IMG/VR virus record: IMGVR_UViG_2778261673_000007 | Source: a virus | Lineage: Duplodnaviria; Heunggongvirae; Uroviricota; Caudoviricetes | Strand: one strand, 5' to 3' | Length of the DNA: 40,308 nucleotides | Program-made: the position numbers and the translations under genes | The notes under the pieces: model-generated | The model's database searches: none | Seen by the model: the letters and a program-made list of their open reading frames with translations, nothing else | What the model was told of the DNA's origin: nothing | Part shown: positions 1 to 38,833 of the stretch, one piece after another | How the letters are laid out: the number at the start of each line of letters is the position of its first letter | Position numbering within the stretch: position 1 is the stretch's first letter

Positions 1-465
1 TCACTTTGATTCAATTTTGAAACTTTTTTTAACCACTAAAATCATGCAGCTAATCACTTCTGCAATGAGGTTAAGAGATAGCACGATAGCAAAAAGTTCT
101 AAAGCAGTAAATAGCTTGCCTTTAGAAGGGATAAATTCGTGCTGAGGATAATTTACTAGTGGTATGTCATAATTACGTAAATAGGGAAGGAAGATTGTTA
201 CTGCCAGACACATGACCAGTAATTTCAAATCTAATTCTAAACTATCTAAATAGTCCGTAAAGTCTGTGCTTTTCTCGCCCTTATTAATGACAGCCAAAAT
301 TCCGAAGATAACGGAGATACCTGCGGCAATACCTCCAAGTATTGAACCTATTACTCCAGCAGAAGCCTGCTCAAGTAAGGTATAAATGGTTTTATCAGTC
401 GATGCTAATGCTAAGCACAAAAAGAAGGTAGCTATAGCTTTAATCCAGACAGTTAGATTTTGCAT
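1..465 (-). CDS. Small integral membrane protein, about four predicted TM helices; downstream partner of the 298-aa gene (putative effector of a two-gene cargo module)
   Basis: Complete ORF with stop at 1-3; four hydrophobic stretches in the translation; 26-nt overlap with the upstream gene (440-465) suggests translational coupling; AT-rich relative to the phage structural genes. No family recognised. Confidence 0.5.
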   Translation of the reverse strand: MQNLTVWIKAIATFFLCLALASTDKTIYTLLEQASAGVIGSILGGIAAGISVIFGILAVINKGEKSTDFTDYLDSLELDLKLLVMCLAVTIFLPYLRNYDIPLVNYPQHEFIPSKGKLFTALELFAIVLSLNLIAEVISCMILVVKKSFKIESK

Positions 466-1336
466 TTTTGAACGTATACCTGTTTTGATGTAATGCTATG
501 ATCTCTTTAATATCATTTGCTGAGTAGCCATCAAGTTCAATTTCTGATATCTCACCTTCGATCAGCACGATTTTGGCTGTCTGATTACTGGATACCGTAG
601 TAGATTTTGACTTGAGTGTCTTACGTCCTTTAATCAACCATGACCCGCCACCATCTTTGACCCAGTCAACAAGAGTCTCAGCCCAATGAGAACCTTTGAG
701 TTTCAAATTGCCATCTTTGTTTTCAAAAATAGTGGTCACAGTATTTGCATTGGTATCTTTTTCAAGCTTCCGTAAATCATTGGTTAACGCTTGCTTACTG
801 CTTCCGAAGATATTCGGAGTAATCAGCGTAAAGCTGACTTTGTCGATAAATTGAAGCCTATGGTATTCTGACCAAAAATCTTCCATTTCAAGACAAGGCT
901 CTATAAATATTCTAAGTCCTAACTGAGCCAAATAGTCGTTATTGGCTAGATCTTCAAACGCTTTAGCAACTTGTTGCGCATCCTTGAAAACAGCGGTTTT
1001 CCTCTCAACCAGTAACACCTGCTCTACTTTGTCCCAAATCCATACGATAGGTGGATAGTTGTCTACATCGTACTCTCGAAAGTCTTTATCATGTCCTTTA
1101 ATCTTTTGCAGCTTTGATATGACTCCAGCCATAACACCATCAGTAGGTTTTATGCTCAATTTCAGGGTGTAACTAGTTTTCTTATGAACGGAAGGTGTTG
1201 ATGACGTCATGTGTAAATTTTTTGCAGCGATAACCATAGCATTTTCAAAATGAGAGATATCTTTCTGAACAGTTCCTTTCGAAAAGAGGTCTGGATCGCG
1301 CGGTCTCATTAACACACGTAAGGCATACAACTGCAT
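440..1336 (-). CDS. Hypothetical 298-aa cytoplasmic protein, first gene of an int-proximal two-gene cargo module
   Basis: ATG at 1334-1336 preceded by AGGAG with 8-nt spacing; no TM segments, no P-loop, no HExxH, no recognisable nucleotidyltransferase motif; AT-rich; promoter region upstream carries a LexA box. Confidence 0.55.
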   Translation of the reverse strand: MQLYALRVLMRPRDPDLFSKGTVQKDISHFENAMVIAAKNLHMTSSTPSVHKKTSYTLKLSIKPTDGVMAGVISKLQKIKGHDKDFREYDVDNYPPIVWIWDKVEQVLLVERKTAVFKDAQQVAKAFEDLANNDYLAQLGLRIFIEPCLEMEDFWSEYHRLQFIDKVSFTLITPNIFGSSKQALTNDLRKLEKDTNANTVTTIFENKDGNLKLKGSHWAETLVDWVKDGGGSWLIKGRKTLKSKSTTVSSNQTAKIVLIEGEISEIELDGYSANDIKEIIALHQNRYTFKNAKSNCLD

Positions 1337-1414: not shown

Positions 1415-1430
1415 CTGTATGCATATACAG
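1415..1430. promoter_or_regulatory. LexA (SOS) box CTGTATGCATATACAG in the promoter region of the two-gene cargo module
   Basis: Perfect CTGT-N8-ACAG palindrome with AT-rich spacer, flanked by t...ta as in the E. coli consensus taCTGTatatatatACAGta; lies in the 115-bp gap between the int stop and the start of the 298-aa gene, near putative -35/-10 elements on the minus strand. Confidence 0.55.
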
Positions 1431-1451: not shown

Positions 1452-2579
1452 TCAAACCTTGATTTTTGCCCATTCCTTACCACGATCATCATGGTATTTA
1501 GCTGTCTGGTTAGGCGATTTATGTCCCAGAAGTTTTTGGGTGTCGACGCCCTGAGCTTCGTAAAGTCGCTCAGATAAAGATCTTTGTTCATGGAATGTGG
1601 CGGGCGAACCTTCACCCCAGTCAATGCCTGCTAAATCCCTCGCTTTACTGAAATTCATCGTCAATGTATTGGCTTTTACTTGCGCGCCACGTTCAGCCTG
1701 TGAAGTAGTACGAAAAAAATGTACAAGGTATGGGCTGACTGCATAGTCACGGCAGCGGGCTACTACATCGCGTAAACTCCAGTTAATTGCATTGAGGCGA
1801 AGGGAAAGCGGGATGGCGATTTTGCTCCCGGTTTTTTCTTGGATGACGTGAAGATGATCATCCCAAATATCGCTAAATTTCATACGTGAGATATCACCTA
1901 ACCGTTGGCCGGTAACCAGTGCTAACAGCATGGCATTCCCCATATAACGATGGCGGGCATCTGCGATATCAAAGATTTTTTGCCATTCTTCAAGACTTAA
2001 CCGTTGTCGGGTAATTTTTCTTCTGGGTTGTTTGGTTGCCAGTGCTGGATTATAGCCCGGAGGGACTTCCCCATAGTGTTGTGCCTCCTTGAATACATCA
2101 ATTAGAACGGAGCGGACTACTTGCGCCATCCTCGGTTGCCCGGCAGTGATATACTCGTCAAGTAATTGTGCTATATCCCTTACATCAACTGATGAAATTA
2201 ATTTCATTCCTGCTCGTTCCCTGAGCAAGGATACTGGTTTGGCTTTCTGTTTATAGGTGTTTAGCTTTATATCGCCACTTTCCAGTCTGTCATCCTGGAT
2301 TGCTTGATAGCGATCTAACCAGGTTGACGTTGTGATTGCTTTTCCTTTGCTGGTTGCGATCCTGTCACTGATAGCCAGAATCTGCCGGGTTCTTTGCTCA
2401 GCCAGGCGTGAATTTGCCTCAGTGGCAATAGCAATGGCTTCAGCTTCGTTTGTGCCTAAAGAATGAAACTTCCCGGTCACTGGATGTTTATATCGCCAAT
2501 AGACTTTATTTACTTTTCTACTATAAAGCGGATACAAGTTCGGGACTGAAACATTATTTTTACGTGGTCTGGCTGCCAT
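1452..2579 (-). CDS. intE: Tyrosine site-specific integrase, e14 IntE-like (375 aa)
   Basis: 375-aa ORF with the phage-integrase C-terminal catalytic region (R...HxxR...Y pattern near ...LGHKSPNQTAKYHD); followed on the same strand by an excisionase-like gene; element sits at icd as e14 does. Confidence 0.85.
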   Translation of the reverse strand: MAARPRKNNVSVPNLYPLYSRKVNKVYWRYKHPVTGKFHSLGTNEAEAIAIATEANSRLAEQRTRQILAISDRIATSKGKAITTSTWLDRYQAIQDDRLESGDIKLNTYKQKAKPVSLLRERAGMKLISSVDVRDIAQLLDEYITAGQPRMAQVVRSVLIDVFKEAQHYGEVPPGYNPALATKQPRRKITRQRLSLEEWQKIFDIADARHRYMGNAMLLALVTGQRLGDISRMKFSDIWDDHLHVIQEKTGSKIAIPLSLRLNAINWSLRDVVARCRDYAVSPYLVHFFRTTSQAERGAQVKANTLTMNFSKARDLAGIDWGEGSPATFHEQRSLSERLYEAQGVDTQKLLGHKSPNQTAKYHDDRGKEWAKIKV

Positions 2580-6093: not shown

Positions 6094-6768
6094 TTAGGCT
6101 TTGATTTTGTATCTTCTTGGTTTTCCTGAGAAAATCACTGTACCAATTATAGAGCAATTACCGTTGATCTTAATGTAAGGCTCAGGCCAGTTTGGGTTTA
6201 ACGCTTTGAGATAACGCTGTGTCCCATCTTCTATCAACCTTTTGAAGGTGGTTTCACCTGTATCGTGCATCAATGCAATAACGTCGTCACCGTGGCAGGC
6301 AGGTACTTCAGGATCGACAAAAATCATGTCTCCCGGGCGGTACTCATCAATCATTGAATCACCTATCACCCGCAAGATATAAGTCATTTCCCCACAGGGT
6401 ACAGGGCAGGGATACGTTTCTGCTGTGCTCAAATCAACCTCAGAATATCCAACTTCTTTCCATGCTCCGGCCTGTACCCATGATATGACAGGGACTAATG
6501 TGATTTGTTTATTAGTGATTGAAACATCAGGTTTTTTTGTGATGTTCGTTGTCTGGTGTTCTTGATCGAGCCATCCGACAGGCAGGTCGAAACATTTTTC
6601 GATGTGTCGTGCCATGCTGTCACCGATATTTTTAGTAGCACCATCTCCCATAAACCTGCTGGTCTGGGTTGGCTCGCGATCAATCATAGTGGCAAAGGAA
6701 GAATTCCCGCCAACACCATCTCTCAGTTTTCTGGCGTTAGACCGCCGGATGTCATGGATTGTTTTCAT
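6094..6768 (-). CDS. cohE: CI-like prophage repressor: N-terminal HTH, C-terminal S24 LexA-type self-cleaving peptidase domain
   Basis: 224 aa; C-terminal region contains the GDSM serine motif and a downstream Lys (TFKRL) typical of S24 peptidases; divergent from a Cro-like gene across an operator-rich intergenic region; size matches the e14 repressor. Confidence 0.8.
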   Translation of the reverse strand: MKTIHDIRRSNARKLRDGVGGNSSFATMIDREPTQTSRFMGDGATKNIGDSMARHIEKCFDLPVGWLDQEHQTTNITKKPDVSITNKQITLVPVISWVQAGAWKEVGYSEVDLSTAETYPCPVPCGEMTYILRVIGDSMIDEYRPGDMIFVDPEVPACHGDDVIALMHDTGETTFKRLIEDGTQRYLKALNPNWPEPYIKINGNCSIIGTVIFSGKPRRYKIKA

Positions 6769-8015: not shown

Positions 8016-8976
8016 ATTAACCGGCTATGTATGGGATGGTTGCGCAGCGTCAGGCATGAAATTATCCAGCGTGGCAATTATGGCACGCCTGGCTGATTTC
8101 AGTAATGACGAAGGTGTGTGCTGGCCATCAATTGAAACCATTGCCCGTCAGATTGGCGCGGGGATGAGTACCGTCAGAACGGCTATCGCACGGCTGGAAG
8201 CAGAAGGCTGGTTAACGCGTAAGGCGCGTCGCCAGGGTAACCGCAATGCGTCGAACGTCTATCAGCTTAACGTTGCAAAGCTTCAGGCTGCGGCACTTTC
8301 TCAACTGTCAGATTCTGACCCGTCAAAATCTGACCCGTCAAAATCTGACACATCAAAATCTGACGCATCAAAATCTGACCCGTCAAAATTTGATGCGTCG
8401 AAATCTGGCAAAAAAGCGGGTTTTCACCCGTCAGAATCTGGCGGGGATCCGTCAGTAAAATCAAAACATGATCCGTCAGATAAAAAACCTTCTCGTCCGG
8501 ACGCTTCGCAACCGGACACGCAGACGGATGAACAGGATTTTTTAACTCGCCATCCTGATGCGGTTGTATTCAGCCCTAAAAAGCGCCAGTGGGGAACGCA
8601 GGATGATTTGACCTGCGCACAGTGGCTCTGGAAAAAAATCATCGCCCTGTACGAGCAAGCCGCCGAATGTGACGGCGAGGTGGTTCGTCCCAAAGAACCG
8701 AACTGGACAGCCTGGGCAAACGAAATTCGCCTGATGTGTGTGCAGGATGGTCGTACTCACAAACAAATCTGCGAGATGTACAGCCGCGTCAGCCGCGATC
8801 CGTTCTGGTGCCGTAACGTGCTCAGCCCGTCGAAGTTGCGGGAAAAATGGGATGAGCTTTCCCTGCGCTTATCACCGTCCGTCAGCACGTACACCGAAAA
8901 ACGCGAAGACCCGTACTTCAAATCCAGTTACGACAACGTGGACTACAGCCAGATCCCGGCAGGATTCAGGGGGTGA
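8005..8976 (+). CDS. Replication initiator protein (lambda O-like), N-terminal HTH, central repeat-encoded linker
   Basis: Position after cro/cII-like genes; N-terminal helix-turn-helix-like segment; internal tandem DNA repeats (iterons) encoding SDPSKSD repeats, as in lambdoid O genes that contain the origin. Confidence 0.7.
   Translation: MSTKLTGYVWDGCAASGMKLSSVAIMARLADFSNDEGVCWPSIETIARQIGAGMSTVRTAIARLEAEGWLTRKARRQGNRNASNVYQLNVAKLQAAALSQLSDSDPSKSDPSKSDTSKSDASKSDPSKFDASKSGKKAGFHPSESGGDPSVKSKHDPSDKKPSRPDASQPDTQTDEQDFLTRHPDAVVFSPKKRQWGTQDDLTCAQWLWKKIIALYEQAAECDGEVVRPKEPNWTAWANEIRLMCVQDGRTHKQICEMYSRVSRDPFWCRNVLSPSKLREKWDELSLRLSPSVSTYTEKREDPYFKSSYDNVDYSQIPAGFRG
8308..8412. repeat. Seven tandem 15-bp repeats (TCAAAATCTGACCCG and variants): putative origin iterons inside the initiator gene
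   Basis: Read directly: units at 8308, 8323, 8338, 8353, 8368, 8383, 8398, with degenerate copies to about 8480 and an A-rich stretch downstream. Confidence 0.6.
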
Positions 8977-8978
8977 TC

Positions 8979-9467
8979 ATGAGTCTTTTGAATGAAGTTC
9001 AGAAATTCATTGAAGCCCATCCGGGATGTACTTCCGGAGACATTGCGGATGCTTTTGCAGGTTACTCACGGCAGCGCGTTCTGCAGTCAGCAAGCAAGTT
9101 ACGTCAGAGTGGGCGTGTGGCTCACCGTTGTGAAGGAGATACACGCAGACATTTCCCGCGCCTGACTGAGAGAGCGCAGGAACCGGAATCACAACCAGTT
9201 CGAGAAACCAGACCTGTGCGCAATTTCTATGTCGGCACTAACGATCCACGGGTGATTTTGTGCCTGACCCGCCAGGCTGAAGAACTGAAGTCCAGGGGCT
9301 TATACCGTCGTGCTGCAACCGTGTGGATGGCGGCATTCCGTGAAAGCCACTCCCAGCCAGAACGAAACAATTTTCTGGCGCGTCGTGAGCGGTGCTTACG
9401 GAAAAGCAGCAAGCGCGCTGCATCGGGTGAAGAGTGGTATCTGTCAGGGAATTACGTGGGGGCTTAA
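8979..9467 (+). CDS. Hypothetical protein with possible winged-helix N-terminus (regulator?)
   Basis: ATG at 8979 after AGGGGGTG; Arg-rich C-terminus; no secure family assignment. Confidence 0.4.
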   Translation: MSLLNEVQKFIEAHPGCTSGDIADAFAGYSRQRVLQSASKLRQSGRVAHRCEGDTRRHFPRLTERAQEPESQPVRETRPVRNFYVGTNDPRVILCLTRQAEELKSRGLYRRAATVWMAAFRESHSQPERNNFLARRERCLRKSSKRAASGEEWYLSGNYVGA

Positions 9468-10120
9468 TGAGTAATAAATATTGCCAGGCGCTGGTGGAAC
9501 TGCGGAACAAACCAGTCCATGAACTGAAGGAAGTGGGCGATCAGTGGCGCACGCCGGACAACATTTTCTGGGGAATTAACACCCTGTTTGGCCCGTTTGT
9601 TCTGGATCTGTTTACTGACGGTGATAACGCCAAATGTGCCGCGTATTACACGGCGGAAGATAACGCGCTGGCGCATGACTGGTCAGAACGTCTTGCGGAG
9701 CTTAAAGGTGCTGCCTTTGGTAATCCCCCATACAGCCGCGCCAGTCAGCATGAGGGGCAATACATCACCGGCATGCGTTACATCATGAAACATGCCAGTG
9801 CCATGCGTGATAAGGGCGGGCGCTATGTTTTCCTGATCAAAGCTGCCACCAGCGAAGTGTGGTGGCCGGAAGATGCGGACCATATTGCTTTTATTCGCGG
9901 GCGTATTGGTTTTGAACTGCCTGCCTGGTTTATCCCGAAGGATGAGAAGCAGGTGCCGACAGGCGCTTTCTTCGCTGGTGCTATTGCTGTTTTCGACAAG
10001 ACCTGGAAGGGACCGGCAATCAGCTACATCGGGCGCGATGAACTTGAGGCATGTGGTGAAGCCTTTCTGGTGCAGGTTCGCCAGCAGGCGGAAAAACTGG
10101 TCAGGGAGATGGCGGCATGA
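9467..10120 (+). CDS. Phage DNA N6-adenine methyltransferase (Dam-like)
   Basis: Contains the NPPY catalytic motif (GNPPYSRAS) characteristic of N6-adenine/N4-cytosine methyltransferases; start overlaps the previous stop (TAATG). Confidence 0.75.
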   Translation: MSNKYCQALVELRNKPVHELKEVGDQWRTPDNIFWGINTLFGPFVLDLFTDGDNAKCAAYYTAEDNALAHDWSERLAELKGAAFGNPPYSRASQHEGQYITGMRYIMKHASAMRDKGGRYVFLIKAATSEVWWPEDADHIAFIRGRIGFELPAWFIPKDEKQVPTGAFFAGAIAVFDKTWKGPAISYIGRDELEACGEAFLVQVRQQAEKLVREMAA

Positions 10121-10443
10121 CGACGTTAACTCAATGCCAGCAGCAGGTGCTGGATATGCTGATTTCTTACCAGAAAGAGCGTGGCTTTCCGCCAACCAAT
10201 CAGGAGGTGGCAACCATCCTGGGATACCGTTCAGTGAATGCAGCGGTAGAGCATCTTCGTGCACTGGAGAAAAAAGGCGTCATCACGATAAAGCGTGGCG
10301 TGGCCCGGGGGATAACGCTTCATACCGCGGTGAAGGACGACGACAGCGAGGCGGTCGGGATTATCCGCGCACTGCTTGCCGGTGAGGAAAACGGCAGGCT
10401 GCGTGCAGCCCACTGGTTACATGAGAGGGGCCTGAAAGTATGA
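10117..10443 (+). CDS. LexA N-terminal DNA-binding-domain homolog lacking the S24 peptidase domain (108 aa)
   Basis: Aligns by eye with E. coli LexA residues 1-70 (...QQxV.D.I.......GxPPT..E.A..LG.RS.NAA.EHL.AL..KGVI.I..G..RGI.L); no Ala-Gly cleavage site or Ser/Lys dyad follows. Confidence 0.7.
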   Translation: MTTLTQCQQQVLDMLISYQKERGFPPTNQEVATILGYRSVNAAVEHLRALEKKGVITIKRGVARGITLHTAVKDDDSEAVGIIRALLAGEENGRLRAAHWLHERGLKV

Positions 10444-10829
10444 AGCTGATCCTGCCTTTCCCGCCCAGCGTGAACTCGTACTGGCGACACCCCAACAAAG
10501 GGGCGTTTGCAGGTAAGAGCCTGATAAGCGCGGCGGGGCGCAAATTCCAGAGCGCGGCGTGTGCAGCAATAGTTGAGCAGTTACGTCGTCTGCCGAAACC
10601 AACGTCGGCACCTGCTTCAGTGGAGATCGTGTTGTTTCCTCCGGATAACCGGATCCGCGATCTGGACAACTATAACAAGGCGCTGTTTGACGCCCTGACC
10701 CACGCGGGTGTGTGGGAAGACGACAGTCAGGTGAAAAGAATGCTGGTGGAGTGGGGACCGGTTATCCCGGAAGGGAAGGTCGAGATCACTATCAGTAAGT
10801 ACGAGAAACCGGCGGGTGCAGCCGCCTGA
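10440..10829 (+). CDS. rusA: RusA Holliday-junction resolvase
   Basis: 129 aa; N-terminal PFPPSVNSYWRH and central RDLDNYNKALFDALT match the conserved RusA catalytic region (Asp-rich site). Confidence 0.85.
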   Translation: MKLILPFPPSVNSYWRHPNKGAFAGKSLISAAGRKFQSAACAAIVEQLRRLPKPTSAPASVEIVLFPPDNRIRDLDNYNKALFDALTHAGVWEDDSQVKRMLVEWGPVIPEGKVEITISKYEKPAGAAA

Positions 10830-12643: not shown

Positions 12644-12660
12644 TTTTGTGGAGAAAGTTG

Positions 12661-13023
12661 ATGCGTGATATTCAGATGGTTCTGGATCGTTGGGGAGCAT
12701 GGGCGGCGAGTGATAGTTCTGGAGTAGACTATTCTCCTATAGCTGCTGGGTTTAAAGGGCTTCTTCCCTATACAAGCAAAACACGTCAGGCTTGTTCAGA
12801 TAGTGATGCATTAATTATTGAAGGTTGTCTTGCTCTTCTTAAGAAGAGAAAACCGTATGAGCACTCTCTGATTGTGGCTCATTACCTGTATGGCATCTCG
12901 AAAAGGAAGATAGCAAAAGCATACAAAAAAGATGAGAAATTGATACGTATAGAGATACAGTTGGCTGAAGGGTTTATAGATGGTTGTCTCTCGATGCTGG
13001 ATATTCGTTTAGAAATGGAGTAA
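12661..13023 (+). CDS. Late-gene antiterminator Q (QuuD-like small Q family)
   Basis: Begins MRDIQMVLDRWGAWAA... which I recall as the N-terminus of the DLP12 QuuD-type antiterminators; position upstream of the lysis cassette; start at internal ATG with GGAGAAAG RBS. Confidence 0.65.
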   Translation: MRDIQMVLDRWGAWAASDSSGVDYSPIAAGFKGLLPYTSKTRQACSDSDALIIEGCLALLKKRKPYEHSLIVAHYLYGISKRKIAKAYKKDEKLIRIEIQLAEGFIDGCLSMLDIRLEME

Positions 13024-13073: not shown

Positions 13074-13820
13074 TTAATCTGGCATTATGGTAGATAATTG
13101 TGGGCTAGGTTTAACCCCGTAGGTTTCTGATATTCTTTTAACGTTGATACCTACGATTTTTCTGACAGCTCCCAACGAAAATTCTAACTCTTTAATCCCT
13201 GCGTCTTTAGAAGTGTTGTTCATATAATAACGGCATGCTTCTCGAATTGACTTGCAAACGATAAATAGAGGTGATTCATCTGGGATTTGAGAAAGCAAAG
13301 AGGTCAAACATGTTCTTAACTCTTTGAGTGATTCGGCAACAAAACAGGGGTTTTCAAGATGATATTCTACGAACAAAGCCCCTTTATCATCCAATTCATT
13401 TATAATCTTTTTTGCCAGATTTCTTTCATCATGCTGTTGAATATATTTCAAAGCATCGAAGGTAATATTAATCGAACCTTCAAGACAGGAGCTTATAAGG
13501 CTTTCATGATCTTTTTTCCATTTTCTTAATACAGGTGCCGGATAGTCTAGCCCCTGATTCTTATCTATTAATACAGAACAAGTAGCACACAGCCATATGC
13601 CATTGTTAATTGACTTCCTTTCTGTTTCTGATTGTGACATGTCATAGCGTGGGCCATCAGGAGATGCTGCACATATGTGAGCAGCAACTCCTGTCTTGAT
13701 TGATTTATTGCCATCAATTGATGGGCCAATGGTCAATCTAGGGCATGAAGGGTTTGAACAAATGAATGCTGCCCGCTCTGCTAATTTTTTTATAGTGTCT
13801 TTAGAAAAATTATGTCGCAT
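13074..13820 (-). CDS. AT-rich cargo gene: 248-aa protein with N-terminal HNH-like Cys/His nuclease motif and unknown C-terminal domain
   Basis: CSNPSC ... AAHICA ... NNGIWLCATC arrangement resembles a zinc-ribbon HNH nuclease; oriented opposite to flanking phage genes; distinctly lower GC; sits between Q and the late promoter. Confidence 0.5.
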   Translation of the reverse strand: MRHNFSKDTIKKLAERAAFICSNPSCPRLTIGPSIDGNKSIKTGVAAHICAASPDGPRYDMSQSETERKSINNGIWLCATCSVLIDKNQGLDYPAPVLRKWKKDHESLISSCLEGSINITFDALKYIQQHDERNLAKKIINELDDKGALFVEYHLENPCFVAESLKELRTCLTSLLSQIPDESPLFIVCKSIREACRYYMNNTSKDAGIKELEFSLGAVRKIVGINVKRISETYGVKPSPQLSTIMPD

Positions 13821-13912: not shown

Positions 13913-13943
13913 AAACCCGCCGTCGAGCGGGTTTTGTCGTTTC
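13913..13943 (+). terminator. Putative tR'-type terminator downstream of the late promoter (Q-antitermination target region)
   Basis: AACCCGC-cgtcga-GCGGGTT followed by TTTTG; located between Q and the holin, where lambdoid phages place pR', qut and tR'. Confidence 0.45.
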
Positions 13944-23121: not shown

Positions 23122-23602
23122 TTTTCAGCAGCCTGCGGAGATGCGCTTTAACCGCGCCCGTGTCCGGCGGGCGTTTGTCACGATTGGTCAGCGTCATATG
23201 CGTGATGCCCGTCGGCTGGTGATGCGCCGTGCGCGGTCGGCACCGGGTGAAAACCCCGGTTATCAGACCGGACGCCTGGCTCGTTCGATTGGTTACATGG
23301 TACCCAGAGCCAGTAAACATCGCCCTGGTTTTATGGCACGTATAGCCCCTAACCAGCGTAATGGAGAGGGAAACCGCCGTATCACCGGTGATTTTTATCC
23401 GGCTTTTTTGTTCTATGGCGTGAGGCGAGGGGCAAAGCGTCGTCGCAGCCATCATCGTGGTGCATCCGGTGGCAGCGGCTGGCGACTGGCTCCACGTAAT
23501 AACTTCATGGTGGAAACTCTTGAAAAGAACCGCAGCTGGACACGCTATTTTCTGGCGCGGGAATTGCGTAAATCACTGAAGCCGGAGCGACGACACAGAT
23601 GA
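23096..23602 (+). CDS. HK97 gp10-like morphogenesis protein (very basic)
   Basis: Arg-rich 168-aa protein in head-tail joining position. Confidence 0.5.
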   Translation: MATSFLHVDFQQPAEMRFNRARVRRAFVTIGQRHMRDARRLVMRRARSAPGENPGYQTGRLARSIGYMVPRASKHRPGFMARIAPNQRNGEGNRRITGDFYPAFLFYGVRRGAKRRRSHHRGASGGSGWRLAPRNNFMVETLEKNRSWTRYFLARELRKSLKPERRHR

Positions 23603-28480: not shown

Positions 28481-29809
28481 ATGACGTGGAAAGACAGACT
28501 TCAGGACGCGTCATTTCGCGGTGTGCCGTTTAAGGTTGAAGAAGAAAGTGCGGGAACCGGTCGTCGTGTGGAAACGCACGAATACCCGAACCGCGACAAA
28601 CCCTATACCGAAGACCTGGGGAAAATCACTTTCCGCCCGTCCATCACAGCTTATGTGGTGGGAGATGACTGCTTTGACCAGCGCGATCGCCTGATTGACG
28701 CGCTGAATAAACCCGGTCCCGGCACGCTTGTCCATCCGACTTACGGTGAGCTGAAAGTCTGTGTTGACGGGGAAGTTCGGGTCAGCACATCGAAGAGTGA
28801 AGGGCGTATTGTCCGCTTTGACCTGAAGTTTGTCGAAGCGGGAGAACTCTCTTACCCCACTTCAGGTGCGGCGACGGCGCAGACGCTGATGTCATCCTGT
28901 TCTGCACTGGATGACTGCATCAGTGACAGCTTCAGTGGTTTCAGTATCGATGGCGTGGCAGATTTTGTGCAGAACGACGTCGTCGGTAATGCCAGCACAA
29001 TGCTTGGGTATGTTTCTGATGCGATGAAAGTGGTGGATTCTGCCGTATCGGATGCCGCCAGGCTGTTGCAGGGGGATATCTCGGTACTTCTGCCGCCGCC
29101 ATCGTCAGGCAAAAATTTCGTTGAGCAGGTGCAGAAAATGTGGCGTACCGGGAAACGCCTTTATGGTAACGCCAGCGACCTGGTCACCATGATCAAAACG
29201 CTTTCCGGTGTCAGCCTCGGCAGCGATCTGCAACCGCGCGGCGTCTGGAAAACGGACAGTAAAACCACCGCCACGGCGACGCAGCAGCGTAACGTGGTTG
29301 CCAGCACCCTTCGTACGACCGCAATCAGCGAAGCGGCGTATGCCGTCACACGATTGCCTGCGCCCACAACTTCCGCGGTGATGCAGAATGCCACAGTGGG
29401 GCCGTCAACAACACCCGCGCAGAGCACCGGCTGGCCTTTTGTCACGCATCCGGCACTGAACAATGCACCGGCGGTGAAAAACACGGTTGACCTGCCAACG
29501 TGGGAAGAACTGACCGACATTCGCGACACACTGAATACGGCAATTGATAAGGAGTTGTCCCGTACAACCAGTGATGCGCTGTTTCTGGCGCTGCGCCGGG
29601 TGAAAGCAGATCTGAATGCGGATATCAACACGCGCATTGAACAGTCTGCACGGATCATTCAGCGCACGCCGGATGAGGTTTTACCCGCGCTGGTGCTGGC
29701 GGCGACCTGGTTTGATAACGCGGCGCGTGACGCGGACATTATCCGGCGTAATGCCATTACGCATCCCGGCTTTGTGCCGGTGATCCCTCTGAAGGTGCCA
29801 GTGCAATGA
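28481..29809 (+). CDS. Mu N-like DNA circularisation / tail hub protein
   Basis: Start at ATG 28481 after GGAG; position after tape measure in a Mu-like tail module. Confidence 0.5.
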   Translation: MTWKDRLQDASFRGVPFKVEEESAGTGRRVETHEYPNRDKPYTEDLGKITFRPSITAYVVGDDCFDQRDRLIDALNKPGPGTLVHPTYGELKVCVDGEVRVSTSKSEGRIVRFDLKFVEAGELSYPTSGAATAQTLMSSCSALDDCISDSFSGFSIDGVADFVQNDVVGNASTMLGYVSDAMKVVDSAVSDAARLLQGDISVLLPPPSSGKNFVEQVQKMWRTGKRLYGNASDLVTMIKTLSGVSLGSDLQPRGVWKTDSKTTATATQQRNVVASTLRTTAISEAAYAVTRLPAPTTSAVMQNATVGPSTTPAQSTGWPFVTHPALNNAPAVKNTVDLPTWEELTDIRDTLNTAIDKELSRTTSDALFLALRRVKADLNADINTRIEQSARIIQRTPDEVLPALVLAATWFDNAARDADIIRRNAITHPGFVPVIPLKVPVQ

Positions 29810-31858: not shown

Positions 31859-32903
31859 ATTTCAGCGCCCGACGCTGGCAGAAAATATCAGTATGCTCCG
31901 TAACGATTTATTCGCCAGGCTGGACGTCAGCGACACGCTCCGGCGCATGGATGAAGACGTGCGGGCAAAGGTGTATGCGGCGGCGCTGCATACGGTTTAC
32001 GGGTACATCGATTATCTGGCAATGAACATTCTGCCTGACCTGTGCGATGAGTCCTGGCTGGCGCGACATGCTGCGATGAAACGGTGTCCGCGCAAGGGGG
32101 CCACGGCTGCCAGCGGGTATATGCGCTGGGAAGGTGTCAGCGATGGCCTGAAGGTGACCGCCGGGAGTGTTATTCAGCGCGATGACCTGGTTCAGTACAC
32201 GGCAACTGCCGATGTAACCAGCTCCGGTGGTGTCCTGCGCGTGCCGATCGCCTGCTCAAGTGCAGGTGCGGTCGGTAACGCTGACGACGGTACGGCATTA
32301 ATCCTGGTCACGCCGGTGAATGGTCTGCCGTCTTCCGGTGTGGCTGACACCCTTACAGGCGGATTTGATACTGAAGAGCTGGAAACGTGGCGCGCCCGCG
32401 TCATTGAGCGGTATTACTGGACGCCTCAGGGCGGGGCTGACGGGGACTATGTCGTCTGGGCTAAAGAAGTGCCCGGCATTACCCGCGCATGGACATACCG
32501 TCACTGGATGGGAACGGGAACTGTCGGTGTGATGATTGCCAGCAGTGACCTGATTAATCCCATTCCGGAAGAATCAACGGAAACGGCAGCAAGACAACAT
32601 ATCGTGCCACTGGCCCCGGTGGCAGGCTCTGATTTGTATGTATTCAGGCCGGTGGCGCATAAAGTGGATTTTCATATCCGCGTGACGCCGGACACACCAG
32701 AAATACGAGCCGCCATCACCGCGGAGTTGCGTTCGTTTCTTCTGCGTGATGGTTATCCGCAGGGAGAACTGAAGGTATCGCGTATCAGTGAGGCGATTTC
32801 CGGTGCGAACGGGGAATACAGCCATCAGTTGCTTGCACCGGCAGACAATATCTCCATTGCGAAAAATGAACTGGCGGTTCTGGGGACGATTTCATGGACG
32901 TGA
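31845..32903 (+). CDS. Baseplate J-like protein
   Basis: 352 aa; canonical position before gp48-like and tail fibre genes. Confidence 0.7.
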
Positions 32904-38077: not shown

Positions 38078-38622
38078 AGTTAAATCCACATTGGTATGAA
38101 TAACATAGAATATGAATTAGTGTTTCAGAATTGCTTCAGCCATCACTTTTTAATACGTTCAATTTGAATGTTTATTTCCGAAACAATTTTTTCAGGTTTC
38201 AGTCCCTCGTTAGATTGCACAAAATCTCTAATTTGCATCATTCGATGTGCACAAATTTGTAATTCGCTATAAACACTTAGCTCGTCAGATTCATTTTGAG
38301 ATTGTTCACCTGTTTAAAATTCTACATAAGTATGTGGCGGATTGTGATAAACACGAGAAATCGGGGTTGGCCACCATTCCTCACCGGTCACTACGTCCGC
38401 ATCGAATAGTACAGTTTTGTCAATTTCCATTAATTTCTGGATAAGAACAGAAGTTTTCAAGCGAACCTCCATTTTGCCATAAAGTGGTTATCAAAACGCT
38501 ACGTAAACTATACAAAATCAGCGAGTTATGGTGAAGGTAAAAAAACAAGTTTAGATGTTCGTTAAGTATAAAATTGTTTTAATTCAATTGGATATAATAA
38601 TTTTCTAAATCTAATGCTGCGC

Positions 38623-38778
38623 CATATGGGTTGGACTGAAGCGGCTGACCTGATTGTTAAAGGTATGGAAGGCGCAATCAATGCCAAGACCGTAACTTAT
38701 GACTTCGAACGTCTGATGGAAGGCGCTAAGCTGCTGAAATGTTCAGAGTTTGGTGAAGCGATCATCGAAAACATGTAA
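38623..38778 (+). pseudogene. icd: Displaced 3' fragment of isocitrate dehydrogenase gene (last ~52 codons), marking the prophage-host junction
   Basis: Translation [51 protein letters not shown] matches the Icd C-terminus as recalled; homology begins abruptly after AT-rich sequence at about 38620; no upstream icd coding sequence present. Confidence 0.8.
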
Positions 38779-38800
38779 TCTCTCCATGTGTTAAATATTG

Positions 38801-38833
38801 AAACGGGCGTATAACACGCCCGTTGTTTTATTT
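38801..38833 (+). terminator. icd rho-independent terminator
   Basis: AAACGGGCGT-ataac-ACGCCCGTT followed by GTTTTATTT. Confidence 0.7.

Follow-up and report, generated by a model that had tools for sequence, protein, structure and literature searches.

The SOS response controls mutagenesis, filamentation, colicin release, the induction of other prophages and the expression of LexA-controlled prophage cargo. Non-cleavable LexA(Ind-) mutants are not inactivated by RecA, and in their presence SOS boxes stay repressed regardless of DNA damage. Engineered proteins in which residues 1-87 of LexA are fused to a leucine zipper repress SOS-box reporters. A phage-encoded version of LexA's DNA-binding domain has been described in the Bacillus phage GIL01, whose gp6, a truncated LexA homologue of 66 amino acids (aa), recognises GaCACAnnTGTGaC instead of the LexA box and is an activator of the late promoter P3 (PMC6182141). 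In the open literature searched, gp6 is the only characterised analogue of the protein considered here, a 108-aa product encoded in a 40,308-nucleotide (nt) stretch of viral DNA (IMG/VR record IMGVR_UViG_2778261673_000007, hereafter the window), and no functional study of this lambdoid LexA-domain protein was found there. The protein carries a LexA-type winged helix, has no protease domain and ends in a conserved tail of two predicted helices. The reading favoured below, tentatively and at somewhat less than an even chance, is that it is a RecA-insensitive surrogate of LexA, paired through its tail and active, in lytic growth, at operators of the SOS type.

A LexA-type DNA-binding domain without a protease

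In a Pfam search the 108-aa protein matches PF01726 (LexA_DNA_bind) with E=5.5e-19 and 68.2 bits, against a cutoff of 23.7, over the whole model (1-65 of 65). It also matches PHROG 362, "transcriptional repressor", from end to end (E=5.4e-58, model positions 1-106 of 106), and by these matches it is a clear member of both families. No match to Peptidase_S24 was obtained in the Pfam search, and the protein ends at residue 108. It falls outside the canonical LexA family, TIGR00498: the score of 69.4 bits lies below the cutoff of 110.95, only positions 1-91 of the 203 in the model are covered, there is no S24 domain or Ser-Lys dyad, and the cleavage site is not conserved. PADLOC returned only a weak match for this protein, between the winged helix and a CARF model; a CARF identity was rejected, the match being judged generic helix-turn-helix (HTH) similarity.

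Among solved structures it is closest to E. coli LexA, both as the DNA-binding domain and at full length (1lea, 1jhh, 3jso; E ~1e-15). An AlphaFold model, made for the monomer only from an alignment of 25 family members, has a predicted local distance difference test score (pLDDT) of 83 and a predicted template modelling score (pTM) of 0.58. Within residues 1-68 it places helices at 6-22, 28-35 and 40-52 and strands at 56-58 and 66-68, the strands forming a two-stranded wing. When this part of the model is superimposed on 3jso and 1lea by Foldseek, the root-mean-square deviation is 0.9-1.0 Å over 67-68 residues, with 50% identity. The first-pass annotation of the window had recognised the N-terminal winged HTH domain of LexA in this protein, with LexA_DNA_bind as the only domain and the S24 peptidase missing, and the profile and structural comparisons bear it out on both counts. 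Judged by its sequence, the 108-aa protein is a LexA-type DNA-binding domain without the catalytic domain, and so cannot undergo LexA-style self-cleavage.

DNA contacts and binding specificity

The base-contacting residues of LexA are S39, N41, A42, E44 and E45 (PMC3091678). Four of the five (S39, N41, A42 and E45) are identical in the 108-aa protein, Glu44 is replaced by Val, and the wing residues RGI are kept; RSVNAAVEH matches RSPNAAEEH of LexA at seven of nine positions. Across the family S39 and N41 are invariant, and position 44 is always hydrophobic or small. Binding of the protein to CTGT-type sites is plausible from these contacts. Because Glu44 has been replaced throughout the family, exact SOS-box specificity is not to be assumed. 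The earlier idea of an uncleavable LexA mimic thus survives in part: the protein cannot cleave itself as LexA does, and with four of the five contacts in place it may plausibly recognise CTGT, but with Glu44 lost the exact specificity of LexA is not to be taken for granted.

A close and serious rival, which we consider only somewhat less probable than the surrogate, is a phage-specific regulator of the gp6 type, whose LexA-derived domain would recognise an operator of its own and activate or repress particular phage promoters in lytic growth, with no action on host SOS boxes. Such behaviour is that of gp6 itself, with its altered site and its activation of a late promoter. In the alignments, position 44 is never Glu in any family member, and residues 42 and 45 vary in distant members, position 45 being usually Glu and in some Gly, Asp, Leu or Ile. 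Moreover, between genera the protein retains ~50% identity where the neighbouring RusA retains 77% and DUF968 66%, a faster divergence than one would expect if its target were the SOS box, which is invariant in enterobacteria. Many groups of phages, besides, commonly encode short proteins with a LexA domain. However, the recognition helix, SVNAAVEH, is much nearer to that of host LexA than is SHKTAHRY of gp6. Inverted repeats in the immunity and late-promoter regions of the window include no LexA-like palindrome and no candidate non-SOS operator, and CTGT/ACAG pairs at spacings of 0-20 across the window show no excess, although this is weak negative evidence. In addition, late transcription is already served by Q and the tR'-like terminator that follows it, and the conserved gene block around the 108-aa gene has no non-coding gaps able to hold an operator.

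The two-helix C-terminal tail

Beyond the winged helix, the AlphaFold model continues through a low-confidence linker at residues 71-74 into two helices with a pLDDT of ~84-86. The protein had been thought to stop before the Ala-Gly site at which LexA is cleaved, which proves incorrect. In the HMMER alignment, residues 86-90 (LLAGE) pair with LexA residues 82-86 (VAAGE), which include the cleavage bond A84-G85, and a further 18 residues follow. The pairing of A88-G89 with A84-G85 holds for this allele, but close relatives have LLANEE or LLVGEE and distant relatives have unrelated residues. Furthermore, the AG-containing segment is predicted to be helical, in contrast to the strand-loop of LexA. 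The lack of conservation of AG and the predicted helix together argue that the tail is a separate module and not a leftover LexA hinge. On the same two grounds, a mimic of the cleavage site, or pseudo-substrate (LLAGEE against LexA VAAGEP), was rejected.

A search of 1.8 billion representative proteins at E<=0.001 gave 4315 relatives. Those of 100-135 aa with 38-53% identity align with the 108-aa protein over its full length, and in them the tail is hydrophobic at positions 82, 83 and 86, with A97 and L101 invariant. The tail is kept in relatives as distant as ~40% identity in prophages of Kosakonia, Kluyvera and Enterobacter. Among solved structures, Foldseek matched the winged helix only and found no significant relative of the tail in the Protein Data Bank (PDB), and a profile of the tail by itself gave just sub-threshold repeat matches to designed PPR proteins there. 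The tail may be a module for dimerisation or for binding a partner.

Two further kinds of protease-less LexA-domain protein occur among the relatives: tandem pairs of ~160 aa, each with two PF01726 stretches, and bare domains of ~80 aa. Tandem domains without a protease are found in metagenomic proteins of ~140-165 aa (P0159, P0162, P0163, P0133, P0145 and P0152), in which the same principle would take the form of a covalent "dimer". BFVD contains many phage proteins of 65-150 aa annotated as LexA DNA-binding domain proteins. Protease-less LexA domains are thus a common kind in phages, and the helical tail marks the enterobacterial lambdoid group.

Distribution and selection

The 108-aa gene is present in 2233 of 5426 complete E. 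coli genomes (~40%), in up to four copies per genome, and 50 phage records carry it at 95-99% identity, among them SfII, mEp460 and Stx2a and Stx2c phages. Existing records name it "LexA DNA binding domain protein", "repressor, lexA family", "LexA-like protein" or "LexA family transcriptional regulator". Annotation of the family as LexA-domain proteins is therefore not new, the kind is already known, and the present case is a sound, testable lead rather than a surprise.

In the loci examined, 202 of 209 copies are intact. The median ratio of nonsynonymous to synonymous divergence (dN/dS) across 115 alleles is 0.09, and the corresponding pooled ratio for polymorphism (pN/pS) is 0.02 for residues 1-70, which comprise the DNA-binding domain, and 0.23 for the tail. 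Values of this sort point to a real, working gene with a tightly constrained DNA-binding surface, and the pN/pS of the DNA-binding domain fits a fixed, conserved DNA target. Some database copies are frameshifted internally or called as fusions to the methyltransferase (P0024, P0030, P0111, P0023, P0092 and P0098); this probably reflects errors in sequencing or in gene calling, or a pseudogene now and then. The first five of them would be the material for regarding the gene as a decaying remnant of a captured lexA with no present function. That is extremely unlikely, since it is contradicted by the proportion of intact copies and by the selection analysis, and since different genera have kept both the tail and the place of the gene.

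Operon position and timing of expression

The window represents a lambdoid prophage inserted at icd, the e14 site, with the gene order int, cI-type repressor, CII-like, O-like, PerC-like, methyltransferase, 108-aa gene, rusA, KilA-N, HNH/DUF968, Q and lysis genes (Table 1). The 108-aa gene overlaps each of its neighbours in an ATGA; GGAG lies 9-12 nt upstream of its ATG, and no promoter-like site is predicted directly upstream. Without a predicted promoter of its own, and joined by ATGA overlaps to the rest of an early-right operon, the gene would yield its product only after induction of its own prophage, or on infection. The protein is thus probably made together with the delayed-early genes, under either circumstance, and not in the resting lysogen. 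The first-pass proposal that it holds SOS promoters repressed during DNA damage needs to be qualified by this timing.

Table 1. Positions in the window of the 108-aa gene, its parts and the other features discussed
Feature	Position	Strand	Basis or remark
108-aa LexA-domain protein gene, stop codon included	10117..10443	+	ATG open reading frame (ORF), PF01726, PHROG 362
Winged helix-turn-helix LexA DNA-binding domain, residues 1-68	10117..10320	+	AlphaFold, Foldseek, pN/pS
Recognition helix start and preceding residue, residues 39-52	10231..10272	+	S39 V40 N41 A42 A43 V44 E45 H46 vs LexA S39 P40 N41 A42 A43 E44 E45 H46
Two-helix C-terminal tail, residues 74-87 and 93-103	10336..10425	+	AlphaFold helices
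ATGA overlap: 108-aa gene start codon / methyltransferase stop codon	10117..10120	+	Sequence, ORFs
ATGA overlap: 108-aa gene stop codon / rusA start codon	10440..10443	+	Sequence, ORFs
Only strong SOS box in the window, CTGTATGCATATACAG	1415..1430	.	Single exact CTGT-N8-ACAG match; position-specific scoring matrix (PSSM)
Two-gene cargo downstream of the box, 298 aa and 154 aa	440..1336 and 1..465	-	
int	1452..2579	-	
cI-type S24 repressor	6094..6768	-	
PerC-family protein (yfdN-like), two genes upstream of the 108-aa gene	8973-9467		Conserved member of the same early operon
N6-adenine methyltransferase, directly upstream	9434..10120	+	
rusA, directly downstream	10440..10829	+	
Q antiterminator	12646..13023		
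tR'-like terminator after Q	13913-13934		

The same placement, including the ATGA-type arrangement with rusA, is annotated in SfII and mEp460, and the same gene position is seen in prophages of Escherichia, Shigella, Citrobacter, Kluyvera, Kosakonia and Enterobacter. In the last four genera the LexA-domain protein is ~50-67% identical and RusA ~77-90%. In some cases the methyltransferase is missing and the gene follows PerC immediately, or RusA is missing and DUF968 comes next. These arrangements indicate that it is not tied to either the methyltransferase or RusA.

Expression on infection, as inferred from operon position, would place the protein in a cell where intact LexA is present. It could then act as an antagonist, occupying SOS half-sites or disturbing LexA without repressing, and would thereby lengthen or strengthen the SOS response while the phage grows or on infection. 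The LexA-like DNA-binding surface and the missing LexA dimer domain would suit such a part. Nevertheless, the suggestion is improbable: repression is what would normally follow when a protein occupies an SOS box overlapping a promoter, mixed dimers would call for the C-terminal domain of LexA, which is absent, and the unconserved AG at the cleavage-site position makes action as a pseudo-substrate unlikely.

Other parts of the prophage can be noted briefly. PerC/Pch-type proteins, to which the yfdN-like product is related, activate virulence loci in enteropathogenic and enterohaemorrhagic E. coli (EPEC and EHEC). Between Q and the holin gene, a 248-aa protein encoded at 13074-13820 on the minus strand matches the PADLOC candidate defence model PDC-M68A (E=7.5e-27) as well as HNH-endonuclease effector models; its gene stands where related phages carry stx or methylase genes as cargo. 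The 3' end of icd is repeated within the window (38614-38831) and directly to the left of it in E. coli fEC.1. Three copies can be counted in all (the window copy, and L002 7577-7794 and 8771-8919): icd itself ends in one of them, another comes after the remnant of an integrase a little to the left of the window, and the remaining one is near the right end of the window. This pattern suggests that the e14 attachment site holds the intact prophage and, in tandem with it, a decayed element.

SOS boxes in the window and in related phages

SOS boxes were scored with a PSSM built from ~24 E. coli SOS boxes. A single site, at 1413-1432, stands out in the window, with a score of 21.9 against a best of 17.5 in 30 shuffles; the rest of the window scores at chance. 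It lies in a promoter-like context, overlapping a plausible promoter of a two-gene cargo, and is inside the att-bounded prophage, between attL and int. The two cargo genes (window 1-1336) have no Pfam, PHROG or PADLOC match, and may be an SOS-induced accessory or defence module. Their position is the one at which e14 carries lit, ymfD and ymfE.

A built-in link between the 108-aa gene and this boxed cargo had been put forward, in which the uncleavable LexA domain would be a dedicated partner that keeps the module silent during induction. The high score of the box, its plausible overlapping promoter and its place within the att-bounded prophage are what one would look for in such a pairing. The distribution of the two, however, largely refutes it and leaves it very improbable: the cargo with its box occurs in 32 of the 5426 E. 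coli genomes, all at least 99% identical, whereas the gene occurs in 2233, and SfII, mEp460 and the prophages of other genera carry the gene without the cargo. Nor is one exact CTGT-N8-ACAG match in 40 kb unusual, since at least one arose in 38 of 100 shuffles. The box at 1415-1430 is at most one of many possible targets, and one shared with host LexA.

A strong SOS box is found within 10 kb of the LexA-domain gene in 44 of 80 IMG/VR loci, at a few recurrent positions, and LexA-controlled cargo seems, from such sites, to be common in this phage group. Canonical boxes are frequent in the group (the window, SfII, mEp460 and these 44 loci), which is counted in favour of action at SOS-type operators.

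Several particular sites in related phages were also recorded. In SfII (29167-29186) and mEp460 (31970-31989) the coding sequence of cI contains an SOS box close to the consensus (TACTGTTTTTATATACAGTA or TACTGTTTTTACATACAGTA), which corresponds to the linker between the HTH and S24 domains and encodes TVYKNS; no promoter is predicted around it. This box is present in 80 of 80 IMG/VR loci of this cI type, but their cI proteins are 99-100% identical to SfII cI, so these are not independent observations. In mEp460 two SOS boxes (23255-23274; 23283-23302) precede a dinI-like gene that adjoins int, and a strong one (41021-41040) sits where a "DNA methylase" gene begins, in the interval from Q to the holin gene. 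Many IMG/VR loci have strong SOS boxes ~1121 bp or 320 bp upstream of the holin gene, at cargo between Q and the lysis genes.

A proposed role during lytic growth

The RecA-insensitive surrogate favoured here would combine a proteobacterial-type LexA winged helix, a short flexible linker, and a two-helix tail in place of the S24 domain that dimerises and self-cleaves. Being translated within the early-right operon, it would appear after induction or infection and not in the quiescent lysogen. It would then pair through its tail and bind CTGT-containing LexA-type operators. Once host LexA had been destroyed, repression would be restored at SOS-box promoters, both those of host SOS genes and those of LexA-controlled prophage cargo. 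The analysis shows which domain this is, that the protease is lacking and the tail conserved, where in the operon the gene lies, how widely it is distributed and that it is under purifying selection; dimerisation, binding to SOS-type boxes, repression and any benefit to the phage are inferred. Tandem covalent pairs of LexA domains such as P0159, P0162 and P0163 fit a need for two domains per site, and the engineered LexA(1-87)-zipper fusions, which do repress, indicate that an architecture of this sort can work.

A number of points weigh against this role, in addition to the changes at positions 42, 44 and 45. On its own, a LexA domain binds weakly. Dimerisation by means of the tail is conjectural, the model being that of a monomer with a pTM of 0.58, and a different dimerisation module could impose a different spacing of half-sites. 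GIL01 gp6, the sole characterised phage analogue, has changed specificity and activates transcription. No strong box was present within 10 kb of the gene in 36 of the 80 IMG/VR loci. The association with SOS boxes may, moreover, be no more than shared ancestry: loci retrieved by way of the holin gene and intended as a gene-less control carried the gene in 56 of 58 cases. Likewise, 50 of 56 loci retrieved with SfII cI carry the LexA-domain gene, but their cI genes are identical and so not independent. Finally, what the phage would gain by shutting off the SOS response is a matter of conjecture.

A more far-reaching form of the proposal, which must be called doubtful, is that the protein is a natural, RecA-proof "LexA domain plus dimerising hairpin" repressor with which a prophage, after its own induction, switches back off the host SOS regulon together with the LexA-controlled genes of rival prophages, colicin plasmids and prophage cargo; in SfII-like phages it would also act on the SOS box inside cI. 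If this were true, phages would widely encode a brake on the SOS response, with effects on mutagenesis, on how prophages compete and perhaps on toxin output. More generally, if the protein acts at SOS boxes, prophage induction would feed back on the host DNA-damage response, and the carriers include Shigella serotype-converting phages and Stx2a and Stx2c phages. If it is instead a private regulator like gp6, a step of control has so far been overlooked in lambdoid phages of a very common group.

Comparison with known LexA-type proteins

With the N-terminal domain of E. coli LexA (1lea, 3jso) the 108-aa protein shares its fold, half of its residues over the 68 compared, four contact residues and the RGI of the wing. 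It differs in having no S24 domain, no catalytic Ser and Lys and no LexA dimer interface, in carrying Val for Glu44, and in the conserved two-helix tail that takes the place of the hinge and C-terminal domain; in addition, it is encoded by a phage, in a lytic operon. LexA-zipper fusions and LexA(Ind-) are laboratory constructs or mutants with the native recognition helix, whereas the present protein is a natural module in which Glu44 has changed and dimerisation is only proposed. Other short phage LexA-domain proteins, such as those in BFVD from Mycobacterium phage Wildcat and the Tectiviridae and those in PHROG 362, are alike in size (65-150 aa), in having a winged helix and in lacking a protease. 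Most of them consist of the domain alone, and the helical tail is common only to the enterobacterial lambdoid group. As far as the searches could show, no tested function has been reported for these other proteins.

The nearest counterpart in kind is GIL01 gp6, which is likewise phage-encoded, produced from an early operon, and made up of LexA_DNA_bind only (PF01726, E=8e-14), with no protease. However, gp6 lacks a tail, and its recognition helix departs from the one in the LexA of its host. It also comes from a tectivirus whose lysogeny repressor is host LexA, whereas the present prophage has a cI-type S24 repressor of its own. BLASTP gave no alignment between the two proteins at E<=100, which suggests that gp6 was derived independently, from a Firmicute-type LexA. 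By these comparisons, gp6 and the 108-aa protein are independent reuses of the same domain, analogues rather than orthologues. Whichever role the latter plays, the LexA DNA-binding domain has been reused by phages with different solutions to pairing, a helical tail here and tandem duplication elsewhere.

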